A stretch of DNA of 32,000 nt, taken from NCBI GenBank assembly GCA_963706795.1, contig OY970170.1, forward strand, positions 510,001 to 542,000, in the 5' to 3' direction. The notes beneath the pieces are model-generated. The model ran no database searches. It was given only the letters and a program-made list of their open reading frames with translations, and was not told the origin of the DNA. The stretch comes from Candidatus Saccharimonadota bacterium. GTDB lineage: Bacteria > Patescibacteriota > Gracilibacteria > BD1-5 > UBA2023. The translations under genes and the position numbers were made by a program. Shown here in pieces: positions 4,230-30,198 of the stretch (positions are counted from its first letter, which is position 1; every line of letters starts with the position of its first letter).

Positions 4230-6761
4230 CTATTTTCGAGCTACCATCTTATATAATTCGAGCATATCTCCAACTTCGAGCTTGAGATCTCATTTAAATG
4301 TAATACCGCAGTCTTCTCCTGCCTCGATTTCATGGACATCGAGCGGACCAGTCTTGAGATTGGCAACTTCACCAGATCCGACTTTTTCGTTATTGCGAAT
4401 GACGCGGATTTTAGCGCGGTTTTCGATCTTTCCACTCGTCACTCCGAGACCGACGATAAACTTGTCCTTTCCTGAGTAGAAGATTGCCTTAACCACTGCG
4501 TGTCCGAGATCCATGTCATCAAATCGGAGGTCGACCATACCCGTAATGATGTTTTCGACTTTTTCAAGTACGTGGTAGATAACCTTTTTATCGATGAATT
4601 CGATCTTGGAATTGGCGAGTGTCTGGCGAGCGTGGATATTTACTCCGACGTTGTAGGCAATCAGAAGCGCCTGAGACGTTCCGGCCATAAGAACATCTGA
4701 GTCATTGATTTCTCCGACTCCCGAGTGAATAAATGTTACCTGTGTTTCTGAAGTCGAGAGCTTGACGAGCGCGCTCTTGAGAGCCTCGAGTGAACCATTG
4801 GAGTCACACTTAATAACGATCTTGAGCTGCTTGAGCGCACCTGATTTGATACGCGTCAGGAGCATATTGAGCGAAGCACCTTCGAAATTGTGGATACTCT
4901 TCTGTCCCTTCGCAAGCTCAAATTCATGAGCCTTTGTTTGAGAAGTGACCGCATCAGGCATTACCTGGAGAATATCTCCACCTTCTACGACTTTTGAGAG
5001 TCCCATTACCTGTACTGGTACTGATGGACCTGCTTCGTCGATATTTTTACCGCGGTAGTCCTTGAGGCCTCGTACACGTCCATAAGCACTTGCACATACA
5101 ACGTAGTCACCCTTTTTGAGGGTACCTGCATTAATGAGGATGGTTGCAAGTGAACCGAGCTTTTGATCGAGGTGTGACTCAATAACCGTACCTACTGCGG
5201 GGCGAGTTGGGTGAGCCTTGAGATCCATGATATCCGTCGAGAGGATGATCATATCAAGAAGTGTTTCGATACCGAGACCTGTGTGTGCCGAAACCGGAAC
5301 CATAACGGTATCTCCTCCCCAATCTTCTGGTTGAAGTCCATGTTCAGCCATCTGACCGCGGATGAGATCGAGATTCGCACCTGGCTTATCCATCTTGTTG
5401 ACAGCAATCACCATTGGTACATTTGCAGCCTTTGCATGATTGATAGACTCGATTGTCTGAGGCTTCATTCCTTCGTCTGCAGCGATAACGATGACCGCGA
5501 GATCCGTGAGCTTTGCACCACGCGAACGCATAATCGAAAAGGCCTCATGTCCTGGAGTATCGAGGAAGGTAATTTTCTTCCCATTTCGCTCTACCTGGTA
5601 TGCACCGATCTTTTGCGTGATTCCTCCGGCTTCACCTGAAGCGACCGAAGTCTTACGGATGTAGTCGAGGATGGAAGTCTTTCCGTGGTCGACGTGTCCC
5701 ATGATCGAGATGATCGGAGCACGAGTCTCCATCTTTTCTGGATCGTCATTTTTGAGGAGTTCTGCAGTATTTCCCTGCATAATATCCGATACCGAAGCCT
5801 CTGTAGAATGTTCTCGAGTAACTTTTACCTGAAATACTTCTCCGATAAGAAAACACGTATCAAAGTCGATCTTGGTATTGAGATTCGTCATCATTCCGTT
5901 CTTCATGAGCTCTCCGATGATCTTCGGGAGTGGAACTCCGATCTTTTCTGAGAATTCTTTTACTGCGAGCATCTCTGGGATCGCTATCTCCTGACCCGTC
6001 TTGTCGGTAAGGATCTGTTTAATATCTGAGTCAGATTTATCACGACGATCTCCGCCAGTAAATTTTTTACCGCGTCGGAATTTACCATCGTCTTCTGGAG
6101 CAGACTGAGTGCGAAGACCCTTCTTTCCAGCTTTGAATCCTTCACCAGCACCGCCAGTACCTGTTTTTTTACCAACGGGGAGTGAATTACGTCCGCGCTT
6201 TGGAGCATTTTGATGACTCTTTGCGTACTGCGCAAGACGATTAGCATTGGGTCCAGCTCATGCAGCAGGTGTTTGTGTGCCAGAAGCAGGAGGCTTTGTA
6301 TCTGGTCGTTTTGTAGTATCAAATTTTGGCGCTGCCTCAAAAGTGATGCGAGGTGCACGATTTTTTACCTTAAATCCACGATCTTGAAGAAGCGGGTTAG
6401 TGAAGGTTTTTGGTGCAGCGGGCTTTGGAGCCTCAGGACGATTTCCTTCAGGACGGCGCTGTTCTGTGCGAACTGGCGGGCGTGGAGCCTGTGGTGGGCG
6501 AGCAACAACCTTTGGAGCCGCTTCAAACGAAATAATCGGACGGAATGAATCCGTCTTTTTTGGAGTTTCGGGAACGGGAGCTGGAACAGAAGCTGCTGGC
6601 GCAGGGGTTTCTGGACGTGATGCTTCTGGTGCTTCTACTGGATCATTAGGCTTTTTTGCCTTGATCTTGAGCTTGAGACCAGATTTTTTCTCACCCTCTC
6701 ATTCAGAAGAGGCCTTTGGTACACTCGAATAGTAATCGTCGAAATTCGTCGTTTGGGTCAT
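4230..6761 (-). CDS. infB: Translation initiation factor IF-2 (843 aa)
   Basis: Track fragment 4290..5972 holds the GTPase motifs ([20 protein letters not shown]). It reads through TGA 4290-4292 to TAG 4230-4232 ([25 protein letters not shown]). It reads upstream through TGA 6258-6260 and 6699-6701 to ATG 6759-6761. The N-terminal region is Pro/Ala/Lys-rich, as usual for IF-2. Confidence 0.9.
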
Positions 6762-6862
6762 AACAATCAGGAAATTTTTCGCACTAGTATACGCTTTGAG
6801 CGCAAATGTCAAAGAGAAGGGCAACTACAAGATGAATTGCTCAAGGAGGAAGAAGATGTCTT

Positions 6863-16167: not shown

Positions 16168-16181
16168 GTATTCTCCTCAAT

Positions 16182-16295
16182 CTTGGCGTTTACCGACTCT
16201 CCCACCGTTAAGACGGCAGTACCATAGGCACGACAAAGCTTAACTTCTGTGTTCGGGATGGGAACAGGTGTACCCTTTGCGTATTAAACACCAAG
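16182..16295 (-). rRNA. rrf: 5S rRNA
   Basis: Reverse complement reads CTTGGTGTTTAATACGC...CCCATCCCGAACACAGAAGTTAAGC...GGGAGAGTCGGTAAACGCCAAG. Helix I is formed by the two ends. Confidence 0.85.
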
Positions 16296-16474
16296 ATCGA
16301 AGAGAAAATGACTCCGAGGAATGGATCTCGTACGAGAGATAGATGATGAGAGAAGCAGGAGTGTGTGAGTCAGTCTTGCGACTGACTCTGTGCTCTTTTC
16401 CTGAAAATTGTGGAGAGAACTATGCGCTCTGACATGCGATTAACGAAAGTATCATTTGATACGCCATCAACTTG

Positions 16475-19521
<3,047 letters not shown>

Positions 19522-19951
19522 TTATATTCTGGCTTATGATTCTCTTTGATGGTTTGTTGAGTTTTGTAACAAAACGATACTTTGTTTGGAATTCATGTTT
19601 AATGGAATGGAGCTTTCTGACGTTTGTTTGAGTTGGACTTGCGTCCTTCTCAGTCTTTGGTCTTGTGCTTTGTGTCCGTTATGTGAATTGCAATTGTTTT
19701 TCGCATGTTTAGTTTTGTATATATGCCCTTTTGTGAAGCATATATACGCGTTTATTTTACTTAGTTACTCTTCACGACATTCTTCGTGTTTCTCTCATCG
19801 TCTATTTCTCGTACGTAGATGTTAAGGGGCATTGAGGCCTTACCTCACACACCAGAAGACGAAGTTGATTCCTTGAGAGAAAAAGAGACAGAGTCTGATT
19901 GTAGATCTTGATGCAGAGCATGGTTGATCGGATCAGTGTCAGATACAGATT

Positions 19952-21427
<1,476 letters not shown>

Positions 21428-22587: not shown

Positions 22588-22643
22588 GAATGTCGAATTA
22601 TGGTGGGCCCACCTGGGATTGAACCAGGGACCAATCGGTTATG

Positions 22644-23327
22644 CATCCCACTTCGACTTTCGTCGCCTCTTTCGAGTTCGTGGTCTGGACTATCCCTTCA
22701 CCCACATGGGGTGTCTGCCGTCTAGTCTCTACACCTGCCTTCGCTGAAGCTTCGGCAGGCAAGCCTGCTATGAATCCTACTTTAGTAGAAGCCCCCCACA
22801 GTAGATTGCCTGCAATCCGTAGACTTGGCGAAGGATTGGCTCGGGATTACCACGTAATATTACAGAGGCTTCCCCGAATTTGACAGATATTCACCAGTAA
22901 ATTGCTCTACTGGTAGCCCTTGACGCTGAATCATATTCAATATTATGCAGTTATGATTGATAACATAACTTGCTCCATATGCTCATGCGAGCTTTCTGGA
23001 AAGCAGAAAAAATTTTGTTCTATAGCCTGTAAAAACAAGGCGCATCAGAGTTATTTTCAACAAAAGGAACGTTGACTAGAAAGAAAGATTCTTCTTATCA
23101 AGAGATTCTGAAGTTGTTGTCATACCTGTGGCTACAAGAAAAATCTCGCAGCTCTGGCATTCCATCATAGAGACGGAAAAGAAAAAGATTTTAAGCTTGA
23201 TATGCGCTCACTTTCCAATCGCACTTTAGACGCTGTGGAGTGAGAGCTCCGAAAGTGTATTTTGCTGTGCCATAATTGCCACGCAGAGACACACCATCCA
23301 GAATTGAACTTAGATTCAACGTTTTTA
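22644..23327 (-). mobile_element. Group I intron (IC3-like, tRNA-intron type), 684 nt, in the anticodon loop
   Basis: Minus-strand core motifs match the Azoarcus/Anabaena tRNA introns as I recall them. GTCAAATTCGGGGAAGCC is at 22867-22884. GGTAATCCCGAGCCAATCC is at 22833-22851. GGTGTAGAGACTAGACGG is at 22718-22735. GGGATAGTCC is at 22687-22696. The intron ends ...GGGATG (terminal G at 22644). Confidence 0.8.
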
Positions 23328-23342
23328 AGCCGACTGCTCTAA
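22953..23342 (+). CDS. HNH homing-endonuclease-like protein (129 aa), encoded antisense to the intron
   Basis: ATG 22953 and TAA 23340-23342. Three in-frame TGA at 23073, 23109 and 23241. Motifs: CSICSC...FCSIACKNKA, RF-G-SCCHTCGY, LAFHHRDGKEKDF, LLCHNCHAETHH. The last 15 nt overlap tRNA exon 1 on the other strand. Confidence 0.8.
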
Positions 23343-23378
23343 CCACTGAGCTATAGGCCCGTTAAAAACGGCAGGACG

Positions 23379-23405
23379 AGTATATAAAAAGATCGCCAAA
23401 GTCAA
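23379..23405 (-). promoter_or_regulatory. Candidate promoter of the split tRNA gene
   Basis: Minus strand reads TTGACT (23400-23405), N15, TATACT (23379-23384), about 20 nt upstream of the tRNA 5' end. Confidence 0.3.
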
Positions 23406-23496
23406 AACAAGTCAGGCCACAACTCCACTCACCGTCTAATATATTGAAAAAAGTGACAACTTCCCTATTCTGCATGCAATAATTATTTAGCAAAAT

Positions 23497-23997
23497 ATGA
23501 GCGAAGTGATCCTTCTATCGGTGAGACAGCATGGCATCAAGCTCTTTTTGCGACTTCCTCGATGGATTGTTTTTGGAACAATTGCCGGAGTTCTCGTCGG
23601 AGTTTCGACTGCTTCTTGGACACTTGGAGCTGTAACTGGAATAGCAACCCTTACTGTCGGCGTAGCTCTGGAGTGGAATCGCTTCAAGCGCTCAACGCTC
23701 GACATTACCAATACCCGCGTCTATCTACAGGTATCAAAGGGGCTCCTGAGTGGATTTGAAGCAGGACTGCATTACAAGCAGATTAAAAATTGTACCTTTC
23801 GTAAACAGCACTTACTACATACGCTCACAAATTCTGGCACGCTCTATCTCCGAGCTGGTGCGGATGAAAAGGAGCAGATCATCGCTGAATACGTACCAAA
23901 CGTCGAAAAAATCTCCAAAGCCATTAACTGGATGCTTGCACTCAGTGAAGATGCTCGCATGCATCTCGAGTCTATTCCGACACATGGAGCAAAATAA
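23497..23997 (+). CDS. Membrane protein with bacterial PH (bPH_2/YdbS-like) domain (166 aa)
   Basis: Intact ORF with two N-terminal TM helices. These are followed by the pattern STLDITNTRVYLQVSKGLLSGFEAGLHYKQIKNCTFRKQHLLHTLTNSGTLYL, typical of bPH_2. Confidence 0.6.
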   Translation: MSEVILLSVRQHGIKLFLRLPRWIVFGTIAGVLVGVSTASWTLGAVTGIATLTVGVALEWNRFKRSTLDITNTRVYLQVSKGLLSGFEAGLHYKQIKNCTFRKQHLLHTLTNSGTLYLRAGADEKEQIIAEYVPNVEKISKAINWMLALSEDARMHLESIPTHGAK

Positions 23998-24023
23998 AAT
24001 CTCCCCGAATTCGGGGAGATTTT
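23997..24023. terminator. Bidirectional intrinsic terminator
   Basis: Perfect palindrome aaatctccccg-aatt-cggggagattt between convergent genes. Confidence 0.65.
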
Positions 24024-24648
24024 AGATACTTTCTTTATAGCATGCATCAATCGCACGCGAAAGATCAAGAAGCGCCTTTAATTGGTTTCGTGTAGCAAAA
24101 ACAACAGATTCAGAATCGCGTTTCATGTAATTCACGGAAGCATCAGAAACAATGAGGAGTCTTGCTTCTTGTAAATACTGAGGATTGTATGGTGTATTAT
24201 TTAATCTCTTTTCATGAAAGTGACTATCGAGTAAACAAGGCTGATAGAGATGTGCACCTATTCCACCATCAGCAGCTCTATTGCTCAAAGTTAGCGTATT
24301 ATCAGTAGAGCCATGTTCATGTCTGATCAAAACGGATTCAGGCATTCTATCTAAAATTTTCTTAACGCTGAGATTTGTCTCCTCATATTGTTCAGTCGCT
24401 ATGGACGCCAGTAACTGAAGAACCTTCCCAGATCATTTATAGTGCGAGAGGAATCAACCCCCTCCTGCTCAACGTATTATAATTTCTGGAAAACCGCCAT
24501 TTTCTACCATGCTTATTCGTTCTTTTTCTTCCTCTCATGCACGCTTTAAAGAATCAGATCACCAGACAAAATAGTCCATTACCACATGAGTAATACTGAA
24601 TGCGGCGGGGTGTTTAGAGTCAGTAGTTTGTTCTCCTAAAAGTTTCAT
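24022..24648 (-). CDS. Hypothetical protein with Gly-rich loop (208 aa), possibly a Rossmann-like LOG/SLOG-type fold
   Basis: Track fragment 24022..24345 extends upstream through five TGA (24433, 24454, 24469, 24535, 24559) to ATG 24646-24648. It contains EIIIR-G-AGGG-G-FLSHYK-G-SG and later NRAADGGIGAHLYQP. The fold assignment rests only on remembered LOG motifs (GGGxxG, PGGxGT). Confidence 0.55.
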
Positions 24649-24765
24649 CTGATCGCGTAAATTGAGTGTACTGTATATACGAGTTATCTATTGTCAATTA
24701 TCCAAATAGCGGCTCTGTACACAAAAAAAGACCTCTTTCAAGGCCTTCTGATTCTTTGATTTTCA

Positions 24766-24885
24766 TGGCGGTGGATGAGGGATTCTTCCTTCGTTTCACT
24801 GCGGACGCCTCGGGCCAGAGTCCAAATCGTTGGACTCTTAAAACGCATTCGCGTTTTACCCTCAGTTCGAATCCCGTCACCAACC
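24766..24885 (-). ncRNA. Candidate structured RNA element, copy 1 (tRNA-Ser 3'-end-terminated core)
   Basis: The minus strand starts GGTTGGTGACGGGATTCGAAC and ends GAATCCCTCATCCACCGCCA. The two ends pair for about 16 bp with three 1-nt bulges. Internal hairpins are AAAACGC-GAAT-GCGTTTT and GAGTCCAA-CGAT-TTGGACTC. Confidence 0.4.
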
Positions 24886-24930
24886 ACAAAAAAAGACCTC
24901 TTTCAAGGCCTTCTGATTCTTTGATTTTCA

Positions 24931-25050
24931 TGGCGGTGGATGAGGGATTCTTCCTTCGTTTCACTGCGGACGCCTCGGGCCAGAGTCCAAATCGTTGGAC
25001 TCTTAAAACGCATTCGCGTTTTACCCTCAGTTCGAATCCCGTCACCAACC
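24931..25050 (-). ncRNA. Candidate structured RNA element, copy 2
   Basis: 100% identical to copy 1. Confidence 0.4.
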
Positions 25051-25097
25051 ACAAAAAAAGACCTCTTTCAAGGCCTTCTGATTCTTTGATTTTTTCA

Positions 25098-25217
25098 TGG
25101 CGGTGGATGAGGGATTCTTCCTTCGTTTCACTGCGGACGCCTCGGGCCAGAGTCCAAATCGTTGGACTCTTAAAACGCATTCGCGTTTTACCCTCAGTTC
25201 GAATCCCGTCACCAACC
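25098..25217 (-). ncRNA. Candidate structured RNA element, copy 3
   Basis: 100% identical to copy 1. Confidence 0.4.
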
Positions 25218-25264
25218 ACAAAAAAAGACCTCTTTCAAGGCCTTCTGATTCTTTGATTTTTTCA

Positions 25265-25357
25265 TGGCGGTGGATGAGGGATTCGAACCCTCGCGGCACC
25301 TTGCAGCGCCCTACAGGTTTAGCAAACCCGCCTCTTCAGCCACTTGAGTAACCCACC
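25265..25357 (-). tRNA. tRNA-Ser(GCU), CCA encoded
   Basis: Acceptor GGTGGGT/ATCCACC with discriminator G. Anticodon arm CGGGT-TTGCTAA-ACCTG. Long variable arm. T-arm GAGGG-TTCGAAT-CCCTC. Confidence 0.9.
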
Positions 25358-25378: not shown

Positions 25379-25406
25379 AGGATATGGCAGATGAGTAGAA
25401 AGTCAA
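25379..25406 (-). promoter_or_regulatory. Candidate promoter of tRNA-Ser(GCU)
   Basis: Minus strand reads TTGACT (25401-25406), N16, TATCCT (25379-25384), about 20 nt upstream of the tRNA. Confidence 0.3.
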
Positions 25407-26620: not shown

Positions 26621-26776
26621 GAAATGCACATACAGATATAGGACGTTTTGAACATGGAGGGAGAAATCTAGAGCAGTCCAGAGAGCATGTCCAAAGTTTT
26701 GAAGGAGTGTAGTCGGAAGAAATAAAAACGCAAAGTAAGCACGTTTGTATTTTCGAACCTCCGCAATAGCCAATAG

Positions 26777-26804
26777 CAAAATAAAGACCTCTTTCGAGGT
26801 CTTT
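26777..26804 (-). terminator. Intrinsic terminator following element B
   Basis: Minus strand reads AAAGACCTC-GAAA-GAGGTCTTT followed by ATTTTG. Confidence 0.55.
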
Positions 26805-26823
26805 ATTTGTTTCGATTTACTTA

Positions 26824-26947
26824 ATGACGGAGAGACAGGGATTCTTCCGTCGTTTCACTTCGGACGCGCTCGGCCGAAAGCCAAATCGTTGGCTTTCTAT
26901 TGCTTCGCAATACCTCACGTTCGAATCCCGCCAAAATCTTCGTGCAC
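26824..26947 (-). ncRNA. Candidate structured RNA element B, a diverged homologue of the 24.7-25.2 kb cores, 3' of tRNA-Ser(UGA)
   Basis: The minus strand contains ...GGCGGGATTCGAACGTGAGG, then TATTGC-GAA-GCAATA, then AAAGCCAA-CGAT-TTGGCTTT, then GGCCGAGCGCGTCCGAAGTGAAACGACGGAA. It ends GAATCCCTGTCTCTCCGTCA, which copies the tRNA-Ser(UGA) 3' end with one change (GTCA for GCCA). The 5' boundary is uncertain. Confidence 0.4.
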
Positions 26948-26948
26948 G

Positions 26949-26968
26949 AAAAAACCCCTTTCGGGGCC
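26949..26968 (-). terminator. Intrinsic terminator directly after tRNA-Ser(UGA)
   Basis: Minus strand reads GGCCCC-GAAA-GGGGTT followed by TTTTC. The architecture and spacer (AAAAATATCAAAGCAGAAGG) match those after tRNA-Ser(GCU). Confidence 0.55.
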
Positions 26969-26989
26969 CTTCTGCTTTGATATTTTTAA

Positions 26990-27077
26990 TGGCGGAGAGA
27001 CAGGGATTCGAACCCTGGGTACCTCGCGGCACGACAGTTTTCAAGACTGTTGCAATCAACCACTCTGCCATCTCTCC
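26990..27077 (-). tRNA. tRNA-Ser(UGA), CCA encoded
   Basis: Acceptor GGAGAGA/TCTCTCC with discriminator G. Anticodon arm ACAGT-CTTGAAA-ACTGT. Long variable arm. T-arm CAGGG-TTCGAAT-CCCTG. Confidence 0.9.
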
Positions 27078-28610: not shown

Positions 28611-29207
28611 ATGAGCGAACTCGAGCATGACAAACAGCCTTCAACGCCTCAGCCAATCGAACACACTGGCATATTTGTAGAAGCCGACAAAAAAAAGCTC
28701 GAAGCGATCGTTGTTGATCGACTCAAGGCACTCTGAAGTCGACTGACTCGCAAGGATATTCAGCTCCTGCTCTCTCATGTCGAAACTGCTCAAAGCATAG
28801 ATGCGCTCAAAGAACGACTCTCAGCTAAGACGGCCGAACGAGCGGACGACGATGCTCTGAGAGAAATCCTCGCCCTCTATAACGAAATCCGAAAAGGTGC
28901 CAAAGAAGGCATTAAAGAACTCAAAATCGACCTCACAAAACTCCTCGGTTCCAACGAACTCGCACTCAAAAAAGGAGTCTTTCTCTCCGAACGTTTCGCA
29001 CTGACAAAAAAACTCGAAAAGAGCGAACTCTGAGACAATATCATTCTCGATATTGTGGGCACAGCCGTAGGAGCTATTGATTCGCTCATTGTGCTCTTAC
29101 GAGTGCTGCTCGATCTCATTTATGATGCTGGGAGACTCGCCGTACATGCAATTACTGCACCAAAGGATCTCTACAAGGAACTCCGAGAACAGTCTCAAAA
29201 ACGCTAA
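28611..29207 (+). CDS. Hypothetical coiled-coil protein with hydrophobic C-terminal segment (198 aa)
   Basis: ATG 28611, in-frame TGA at 28734 and 29031, TAA at 29205-29207. I checked every codon. It starts 3 nt after the lipoprotein stop. Confidence 0.5.
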
Positions 29208-29863
29208 CCTCGTGTAGCAATCGACACGATATTCCGCTCATTTACCATATGGCGAATATCTATAAATCATGCTGTCTCAAATAACTCTGAGAGTTCTTCG
29301 GTCTGAAACGCATGGTAAAATCGTAGCGACTTCGCAAATTTAATGGCAAAATCATATCATCCTGGCGTAGTAGGCTGGTATTTTTTTTGGTTTGCTTCCG
29401 AGGTTAAATGCCAATTTGTCATAAAAAGCTTACCTTCTGTAGCAAGCAATGCTCAAGCTTTTTTAAGAACCTCAAGACGTTCGGATTGCGAGCGCAAATG
29501 ATGGAAGCTGGCGAGAAAGACGATTATGTCAAAATTGTTGTCTATCGTGTCCAGGTTCTGCATGGGTATCACTGAGAACTTGTTTTCTGGATGAGCTTTT
29601 TGAGCCTCTTGTATCATGAGTTTCGATTCGTCGATTCCGTGATAGATCACTGGGATATTTTGCGCTCATAACGCCTCCAAAAGACGACCAGAACCACATC
29701 ATATGTCGAGTAGACGAGGTCTATCTCACTGAATATTTCTCAACTCTGTAGTCAAAATATCGAATTCAGGCCAGTGCATTCCAGCACGAGAACGTGCAAA
29801 GGCAGAGGCGAATCCATCATAATCTGCTACAGTCGAGTGATCTTGAGAATCGTATCAATTCAT
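29204..29863 (-). CDS. Class I SAM-dependent methyltransferase (219 aa)
   Basis: Track fragment 29453..29650 extends both ways across seven TGA. Motif I is RLLDI-G-CGSGRLL (TGA 29699-29701). The post-I region is VIYHGIDES and the C-terminal part is LKKA-G-ALLATEGKLF. ATG at 29861-29863 and TAG at 29204-29206. Confidence 0.8.
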
Positions 29864-30198
29864 CTTTGCAGATTACGGATAAGAGGTGACAGATTGCAGC
29901 CACCCGAGAGCTCACAAGGAACATTCCCTGTACAGATAGTAAGTGAAAGATCTTCTCAAATAGCAAAGAGAACTTCGTAGACAGATATTTCTTTTTTAGC
30001 TATGGAAATACCACCATTTCTACCTTTTTGCGAACGAATAATATTCGCATGTTCAAGATCATTCGCAATTTTTCGAATGAGGGACTCCGAGATCGCCATT
30101 TCTTGAGCGACGACCGAAATTTTTAGAATTCCATCATGTGCGAGGAGATAACGAACGAGCAGCATTGCATACTCGCCACGCGCAGAAATCTTAAGCAT
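29827..30198 (-). CDS. Rrf2-family transcriptional regulator with three-Cys cluster motif
   Basis: MLKISARGEYAMLLVRYL... wHTH. It reads through TGA 29956-29958 and 29860-29862 to TAG 29827-29829. C-x5-C-x5-C (CTGNVPCELSGGC) is typical of Fe-S-binding Rrf2 proteins. Confidence 0.8.

Follow-up and report, generated by a model that had tools for sequence, protein, structure and literature searches.

In a 32,000-nt stretch of a candidate-phyla genome (contig OY970170.1, positions 510,001 to 542,000; hereafter the window), the gene for tRNA-Ser(GCU) is followed on its own strand by a tandem array of structured units, each of which ends in a copy of the tRNA 3′ end. We interpret these units as probable tRNA-linked repeats (TLRs), corresponding in structure to the RtT/rttR and rrA/B/F elements of E. 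coli but carried by a Gracilibacteria-type bacterium that uses genetic code 25. To judge from the sequence comparisons presented below, the element is real, conserved and structured, and is a sequence-unrelated variant of the TLR design. It is the first TLR-type example found outside Enterobacterales in the literature and databases searched.

[quoted passage not shown] The function of the tRNA-linked members is not known, and a 1991 functional claim concerning rtT was withdrawn in 1994 (PMC8144298). The RtT/rttR literature cited in that paper includes Egan & Landy 1978, Bosl & Kersten 1991 and Rudd 1999. The TLR family also contains the small RNAs rrA, rrB and rrF, which lie between two terminators of rrnA, rrnB and rrnD, and read-through with the upstream gene followed by processing to a discrete RNA has been shown for rrA/B/F and rttR (PMC8144298). 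The copied 3′ end has been proposed to serve as a processing signal (PMC8144298).

Anatomy of the array behind tRNA-Ser(GCU)

Each unit consists of a 45–47-nt trailer, which carries the hairpin GGCCUU-GAAA-GAGGUC followed by U7, and a 120-nt core (Table 1). Tandem Repeats Finder reports a single array at 24720–25284 with a period of 165 nt, 3.4 copies and 99% matches, and a repeat search returned three 169-nt copies at 100% identity, with the trailer and terminator identical in four copies. The array stops 3 nt into the would-be next core. The final 20 nt of the core (GAATCCCTCATCCACCGCCA) are those of tRNA-Ser(GCU) from G57 through the encoded CCA, and exact copies of the last 18 nt of the tRNA lie at 25098–25115, 24931–24948 and 24766–24783. 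These searches bear out an earlier note, made from the letters of this DNA alone, which had described a tandem array of identical cores ending in the tRNA-Ser(GCU) 3′ end; direct reading of the sequence likewise agrees with its statement that identity begins at G57, with GAATCCC. The spacing of 165/165/167 nt given there holds from terminator to terminator, whereas the tail-to-tail spacing is 167/167/165. Both periods occur because some trailers contain a run of A4 instead of A6, the four trailers reading A6/A6/A4/A4.

The 120-nt core is predicted by RNAfold to form a closing helix that encloses two perfect hairpins and leaves a free GCCA tail, as the earlier note had proposed, with an energy of −50 kcal/mol (z = −4.45) that none of 200 shuffled sequences equaled. 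The terminator scan finds four terminator-like sites on the minus strand of the array. Each core is bracketed by minus-strand terminators whose G-U pairs function on that strand only, in agreement with the proposals that every unit has its own terminator and that the minus strand is the meaningful one. At −11 kcal/mol, these terminators are weaker than the others in the window (−13 to −19 kcal/mol). Promoter-like sites are found only upstream of the tRNA and past the array, with none within the units at the scan threshold. We considered and rejected a promoter inside the unit, since no site there reached that threshold and inspection by hand gave only poor −10 candidates. The block formed by tRNA tail, trailer and terminator, which recurs in every unit, measures 65–67 nt.

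A diverged core behind tRNA-Ser(UGA)

A single diverged copy, core B, follows a second serine tRNA gene of the window, tRNA-Ser(UGA). At both genes the cores begin 47–55 nt past the tRNA on the same strand. Outside the tail, core B is identical to the array core (core A) at 62 of 95 positions. It ends in GAATCCCTGTCTCTCCGTCA, which differs at one position from the 3′ end of its own host, tRNA-Ser(UGA), and is not the tail of the other tRNA. Both hairpins are retained in core B, with 7 of the 23 pairs changed on both sides (three in hairpin 1 and four in hairpin 2). Across the cores, 98.5% of the hairpin cells pair as against 25–54% when the partner strand is slid, and none of 500 shuffles did equally well. 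Two parts are invariant in all cores: a 7-bp helix, GGGAUUC/GAAUCCC, and the purine-rich single strand GCGUCCG-N-AGUGAAACGA-N-GGAAG. The native trailer of tRNA-Ser(UGA) has been displaced by another, and the latter, like the trailers of the array, resembles the native tRNA-Ser(GCU) trailer.

Table 1. Features of the two tRNA-Ser loci in the window (CM R1, covariance model built from the three distinct cores)
Feature	Position	Strand	Basis and remarks
Sigma-70-like promoter of tRNA-Ser(GCU), TTGACT-16-TATCCT	25379–25406	−	Promoter scan; sole promoter-like site upstream of the array
tRNA-Ser(GCU), CCA encoded	25265–25357	−	ARAGORN and Rfam tRNA; final 20 nt (25265–25284) recur at the end of each core
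Trailer and intrinsic terminator 1	25218–25264	−	Hairpin 25223–25246, then U7; sequence, terminator scan, trailer comparison
Core copy 1, 120 nt	25098–25217	−	Tail-complementary 5′ segment, two hairpins, conserved purine-rich single strand, 20-nt tRNA tail
Core copy 1, CM R1 match	25098–25212	−	143.5 bits
Trailer and terminator 2	25051–25097	−	Hairpin 25056–25079; repeat search and terminator scan
Core copy 2	24931–25050	−	100% identical to copy 1; repeat search and CM R1
Trailer and terminator 3	24886–24930	−	Hairpin 24891–24914; A4 run in place of A6; sequence, terminator scan
Core copy 3	24766–24885	−	100% identical; repeat search and CM R1
Last trailer and terminator 4	24721–24765	−	Hairpin 24726–24749; sequence, Tandem Repeats Finder, terminator scan
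tRNA-Ser(UGA), second host of the element	26990–27077	−	ARAGORN and Rfam
Trailer and terminator preceding core B	26935–26989	−	Similar to the trailer at the Ser(GCU) locus; unlike the native trailer of tRNA-Ser(UGA)
Core B, single diverged copy	26825–26934	−	CM R1 118.8 bits; terminators on both sides
Displaced native tRNA-Ser(UGA) trailer and terminator	26776–26824	−	Hairpin 26779–26808; homologous to the DNA directly after that tRNA in locus L030

Presence, absence and conservation in relatives

A scan of genome contigs with GTGAAACGNNGGAAGAATCC, covering one genome per GTDB species, matched 46 loci. The only true relative among them is L030, from a Patescibacteria metagenome-assembled genome (MAG); the other 45 are chance coding matches or belong to an unrelated Acidobacteria repeat. 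In L030 the gene order is the same and tRNA-Ser(GCU) is identical; behind this tRNA come a trailer, a single complete core, another trailer, a core stump of about 19 nt and tRNA-Met. A TTGACT...TAT(T/C)CT promoter sequence also stands upstream of this orthologous tRNA-Ser(GCU). The L030 core matches the window core A at 90 of 95 positions, the differences falling in both hairpin loops, in the segment past the closing helix and in the acceptor-like 5′ strand. For comparison, the two genomes have 94.6% identity in 16S and, in the adjacent gene, 73% in DNA and 72.8% in protein. The trailer hairpin has diverged, with compensatory changes. That the core is 95% conserved at the same locus despite saturated neutral divergence, while the trailer has diverged, argues for vertical descent under constraint.

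Two further structural candidates were dropped on comparison of the cores. RNAfold predicts a second long-range helix, ACUG/CAGU, which is broken in L030 without compensation. A hammerhead-like reading of CUGAGG...GAAAC fails in that the motif is not retained in core B or L030 and has no Rfam match.

The distribution of the element is patchy. In L030, tRNA-Ser(UGA) has no core behind it, and the DNA directly after this tRNA is the homologue of the window DNA located past core B. No core is present in L048, L049, L052 or L053 (52–68% protein identity, same synteny), where the arrangement is a plain tRNA and terminator; the unit trailer with terminator 1 resembles the native tRNA-Ser(GCU) trailer of such element-less relatives (L048 and L052). 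A short Logan contig, L050, comes from an organism in which the phosphoesterase has 93.7% identity with that of L030. Exactly 30 nt of a 5′ end like that of core B stand at the start of the contig; joined to the downstream DNA, they correspond to the k−1 overlap expected at a repeat boundary, which hints that the genome from which L050 derives does carry the element. At Ser(GCU), the window has three copies, L030 has one and an additional stump, and more distant relatives have none. As far as these loci can tell, the element is confined to a small clade in which even close relatives differ by its gain or loss, and where it is present its conservation far exceeds the neutral level.

Further copies were sought in several ways. 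CM R1 found none in the window, with filters off, or in nine related loci. A metagenome scan with GCGTCCGNAGTGAAACGANGGAAG gave 0 matches, and one with the displaced tail DGAATCCCTCATCCACCGCCA gave 8 loci, all without tRNAs and hence chance or coding matches. In a blastn comparison of the locus with plasmids, only the tRNA matched.

Two observations stand somewhat apart. Just past the last terminator of the tRNA-Ser(UGA) locus lies a T-arm-like inverted segment (L050 1–30, L030 5010–5045, window 26735–26780), with the sequence GGGATTCGAACGTGAG in L050 and degenerate versions in L030 and the window. Like the 19-nt stump at the end of the L030 Ser(GCU) array, it may have been left behind when a unit was lost by recombination, or it may hint at how the units originate. 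In addition, Acidobacteria/Terriglobia MAGs contain a multi-copy repeat, GTCATTCTGAGGAGCCGAAGGCGGTCCTGAGTGAAACGAAGGAAGAATCC..., often followed by an inverted GGGATTCTTCGC (loci L006, L007, L011, L016, L018, L020, L021, L023, L031, L036, L037 and L038), which has a 20-mer in common with the conserved strand of the core. No tRNA link was seen within about 150 nt around each match, these loci not having been scanned for tRNA genes, and the shared 20-mer is treated here as a coincidence.

Correspondence with E. coli TLRs

The tyrT–tyrV locus of E. coli K-12 has a period of 178 nt, 3.1 copies and four Rfam RtT matches (133–137 bits), and every RtT copy ends in AATCCTTCCCCCACCACCA, the final 19 nt of tRNA-Tyr. 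In the RtT fold, the 5′ segment GGGGAAGGAU pairs with the copied tail AUCCUUCCCC around internal hairpins and leaves ACCACCA free. When 26 tRNAs were screened for a downstream copy of their tail, one was found only at the two tRNA-Ser genes of the window, at tRNA-Ser(GCU) of L030 and at E. coli tyrT/tyrV, and in every case the first copy lay 147–160 nt past the tRNA. The 5S, tRNA-Arg(UCU), tRNA-Val(GAC) and tRNA-Val(UAC) genes of the window rRNA operon have no downstream copy of their 3′ ends.

Measured against the TLR definition, the cores lie directly downstream of a stable-RNA gene on the same strand. Their 3′ ends match that gene at 20 of 20 positions in the window A copies and L030, and at 19 of 20 in core B. 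There are three at Ser(GCU), one at Ser(UGA), and one plus a stump in L030, within the range of one to five per locus. The earlier note took the array for no known kind of element; this was mistaken, as a copied 3′ end of this sort is the hallmark of the E. coli TLR/RtT elements (PMC8144298), seen also at tyrT–tyrV. The same unit size, tail copy, closing helix and terminator bracketing, together with above-neutral conservation, suggest that the design itself is selected.

A number of results weigh against this assignment or narrow it. The Rfam RtT model (gathering threshold 45 bits) does not match the cores of either locus, whether at gathering or at E ≤ 10; at these settings Rfam returns tRNA matches only, with no ribozyme, signal recognition particle RNA, Y-RNA-like or other family. 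An nhmmer profile of the core interiors alone does not match E. coli RtT, and blastn finds no match in E. coli genomes. CM R1 matches one RtT copy over its full length at 22.7 bits and the others at about 7 bits, but tRNA-Tyr alone scores 10–13 bits through its tail; the link to E. coli TLRs is therefore architectural and not a demonstrated homology. The covariation set contains only three distinct sequences, and every double change comes from the comparison of A with B. A terminator-like hairpin with U7 precedes each core, so that transcription of the cores could be very low. The acceptor-like 5′ strand GGUUGGU and the 16-bp helix, which the earlier note described correctly for the window A copies, are not conserved in L030 or core B, where the common part is the 7-bp helix; RNase P processing is therefore not a general feature, and a full acceptor-stem mimic exists only in the Ser(GCU) copies of the window. 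Finally, the tail of core B is of the local tRNA type yet does not pair any further with the 5′ segment, which points to some copying process at the DNA level.

Proposed working of the element

The most likely scheme that can be read from these loci combines co-transcription by terminator read-through, trimming of the copied tRNA end, and changes in copy number by unequal recombination. The tRNA-Ser promoter would drive the locus, and some polymerases would pass the comparatively weak terminator 1 and transcribe the core as far as the next terminator. The copied tRNA 3′ end pairs with the 5′ segment of the core and would leave a free ...GCCA in the transcript. Given this helix and tail, the same machinery that trims tRNA 3′ trailers would define and protect the 3′ end of the core, stopping at the helix and GCCA. 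In the Ser(GCU) copies of the window only, RNase P would set the 5′ end. A stable RNA of about 115–120 nt would result, and in it the invariant strand GCGUCCG-N-AGUGAAACGA-N-GGAAG is a candidate effector or binding surface. The suggestion in the earlier note of a small RNA that mimics a tRNA end and is handled by tRNA-processing enzymes fits the evidence and the E. coli precedent best, with the restriction that the full acceptor mimic is confined to the window Ser(GCU) copies.

At the DNA level, unequal homologous recombination between the 65–67-nt tail-trailer-terminator blocks would expand and contract the array. The two tRNA-Ser genes have AGGGTTCGAATCCCT in common, and this may have been the route by which the element reached the second of them.

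We raise tentatively a broader possibility: TLRs may form a general class, either ancient or arisen repeatedly, whose members duplicate the 3′ terminus of a stable RNA that is strongly expressed. Through the copy they would borrow the transcription and end-maturation machinery of that RNA, and their conserved design would consist of a 5′ segment antisense to the tail, hairpins in the interior, a purine-rich strand as effector and finally the tRNA tail. On this view the elements in Gracilibacteria would be either distant RtT homologues or an independent reinvention, and would offer a second, unrelated system for working out TLR function and the copying mechanism.

Alternative explanations

The most serious rival is that the array is a miniature gene-less integrative element or island remnant, moved in trans by a tyrosine or serine recombinase, with the crossover in the segment from the T-loop to the 3′ end of tRNA-Ser, the tails as att sites and the array built by tandem accretion. 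Integrative elements duplicate tRNA 3′ ends as att sites, and their gene-less, cis-mobilisable derivatives are known as CIMEs. The points in common are that direct repeats run from the T-loop to CCA, that an intact tRNA 3′ end is restored, and that tandem arrays are possible. At tRNA-Ser(UGA), moreover, the unit has displaced the native 3′ end and trailer, and these, which now carry a mutation (GTCA), are homologous to the L030 DNA directly after the tRNA. Presence also varies between close relatives (L030 lacks core B, and L050 has the 30-nt core-B-like start), and the three copies are identical, which implies recent amplification.

We nevertheless regard this explanation as unlikely. The unit is only 165 nt long, no recombinase family matched the open reading frames (ORFs) flanking either locus, two core patterns gave 0 matches in 2.9 million viral contigs, and blastn found none in phages. 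The trailer and terminator of the unit look native rather than foreign, resembling those of tRNA-Ser(GCU) in element-less relatives. At locus B, the two tail copies both have the local Ser(UGA) form, an outcome that one crossover with an element of Ser(GCU) type cannot yield. The core is conserved as a functional RNA would be, 95% at the orthologous site where the trailer has diverged and neighboring coding DNA is about 73% identical. E. coli TLRs of the same design are not reported as integrase-linked in PMC8144298. The integrative element envisaged in the earlier note thus accounts for the patchy presence and the displaced Ser(UGA) 3′ end, but not for the native-like trailer, the conserved core or the lack of a nearby recombinase or phage match.

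It is distinctly less likely that the cores are decayed tandem duplicates of tRNA-Ser, that is, functionless pseudo-tRNAs in which the 3′ end alone is still recognizable. The window core does begin with GGTTGGT, one change from the GGTGGGT of the tRNA, its 5′ segment GGGATTCGAAC is an inverted T-loop/T-stem sequence, and T-arm-like fragments also occur in E. coli RtT. However, GGTTGGT is absent from L030 and core B, and neither ARAGORN nor Rfam RF00005 sees the cores, reporting only five true tRNAs and one split one. The interior has no likeness to tRNA-Ser by eye, yet 62 of 95 positions are common to both loci, with compensatory changes, and the core is conserved far above neutral expectation.

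An assembly artefact, in which the repeat or its copy number of three is unreal, is very unlikely. In its favor, the copies are 100% identical, and a short-read contig of the same strain (L047), which also occurs in run ERR12037365, ends precisely at the tRNA-Ser(GCU) 3′ end, at the repeat boundary, and does not span the array. Against this, the independent MAG L030 has the same element in the same place, a diverged copy exists at a second window locus, the A6/A6/A4/A4 variation of the trailers is not expected of a collapsed or expanded repeat, and the source contig, at 1,267,896 nt, is 1.27 Mb long. L030 and core B exclude an artefact for the element itself; this exclusion does not extend to the exact copy number.

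It is extremely improbable that the array is a type III toxin-antitoxin-like RNA array for the downstream gene, as the earlier note also suggested, or encodes a small repeat protein. Terminator-bearing tandem repeats do precede an uncharacterized ORF of 208 aa, and long ORFs traverse the array on both strands. That ORF, however, has no family match and is absent from relatives, unlike the conserved endoribonuclease toxin gene of a ToxIN-like arrangement; in L030 the array leads into tRNA-Met, and the gene that comes after core B is another one. Cores A and B differ by indels and by paired substitutions in the stems, which disrupt all reading frames, and a search of 5.8 billion proteins with the open frames of the array matched the genome's own 173-aa ORF alone. 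The frames are open because the 165-nt period is a multiple of 3 (55 codons). The array is recorded publicly as this 173-aa 'protein', P0121 (24698–25219, minus strand), a spurious ORF.

Genomic context

TGA is a sense codon for Gly in this genome (genetic code 25). Translation with table 11 breaks the ORFs into fragments, whereas long frames appear once TGA is taken as a sense codon, and TGA occurs at Gly positions, as in the S-adenosylmethionine-binding motif LDI-G-CGSG; examples are 4230–6824 and 29204–29872, both on the minus strand. The closest named relative of the neighboring metallophosphoesterase is in a Candidatus Gracilibacteria MAG, and on these two grounds we place the organism among the code-25 Gracilibacteria-type members of the candidate phyla radiation. 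With TGA read as sense, IF-2 lengthens from 560 to about 864 aa. Table-11 gene calls are truncated in public protein sets, as for P0005 (286 aa versus about 382).

Between the end of the array and tRNA-Met lie about 1.3 kb (23400–24720) with two ORFs without a Pfam match, at 24022–24687 (minus strand) and 23491–23997 (plus strand). This extra DNA starts exactly where the array stops; L030, L048 and L053 lack it, and in them tRNA-Met closely follows tRNA-Ser(GCU). The tRNA-Met(CAU) gene itself (22601–23360, minus strand), missed by ARAGORN, is split in its anticodon loop by a 684-nt insert (22644–23327) with an Rfam group I intron match at 22664–22954 (59.3 bits), and is uninterrupted in the same three relatives. 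Further along is an rRNA operon (16181–21427, minus strand) in the order 16S-23S-5S, with a spacer of about 520 nt that contains no tRNA, followed by tRNA-Arg(UCU), tRNA-Val(GAC) and tRNA-Val(UAC).

Comparison with known systems

The host, an uncultured, reduced-genome, code-25 candidate-phyla bacterium, belongs to a lineage very distant from E. coli. The element reveals no new principle, and its value is as an independent system for two long-standing questions: it offers a comparative handle on what TLR RNAs do and on how the 3′ end of a tRNA comes to be duplicated downstream of the gene it belongs to. On the practical side, such arrays break short-read assemblies at tRNA genes and produce spurious ORF calls, here the 173-aa 'protein'.

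Among known systems, 3′ETS-leuZ, a small RNA from the trailer of an E. coli tRNA operon, is similar in that it rides on tRNA transcription and is freed by tRNA processing; unlike the cores, it occurs singly and lacks a duplicate of the tRNA 3′ end (PMC8144298). The rrA, rrB and rrF RNAs are closer. They too lie between two terminators behind a highly transcribed stable-RNA gene whose 3′ end they copy, and they have conserved GGA-containing single strands, which here take the form A(A/C)GGAAG. Their host gene is 5S rRNA and not a tRNA, however, and there is no sequence similarity; in E. coli their partners are Hfq and CsrA and the nuclease is RNase E.

The closest counterpart is RtT/rttR (Rfam RF00391). 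In both systems the units stand behind a tRNA on the same strand and end in its last 18–20 nt, including CCA. They form tandem units of 165–178 nt, one to five per locus, with the first tail copy about 150–160 nt past the tRNA. In both, the copied tail has its complement at the 5′ end of the element, which accounts for the closing helix around the internal hairpins and for the free ...CCA end. The differences are that the host here is a Patescibacteria/Gracilibacteria-type organism with genetic code 25 and not an enterobacterium, that each unit has its own intrinsic terminator, and that the host genes are, in the DNA examined, tRNA-Ser genes only. On this comparison, the element is best filed as a putative TLR by definition and architecture, and not as a member of the RtT sequence family.

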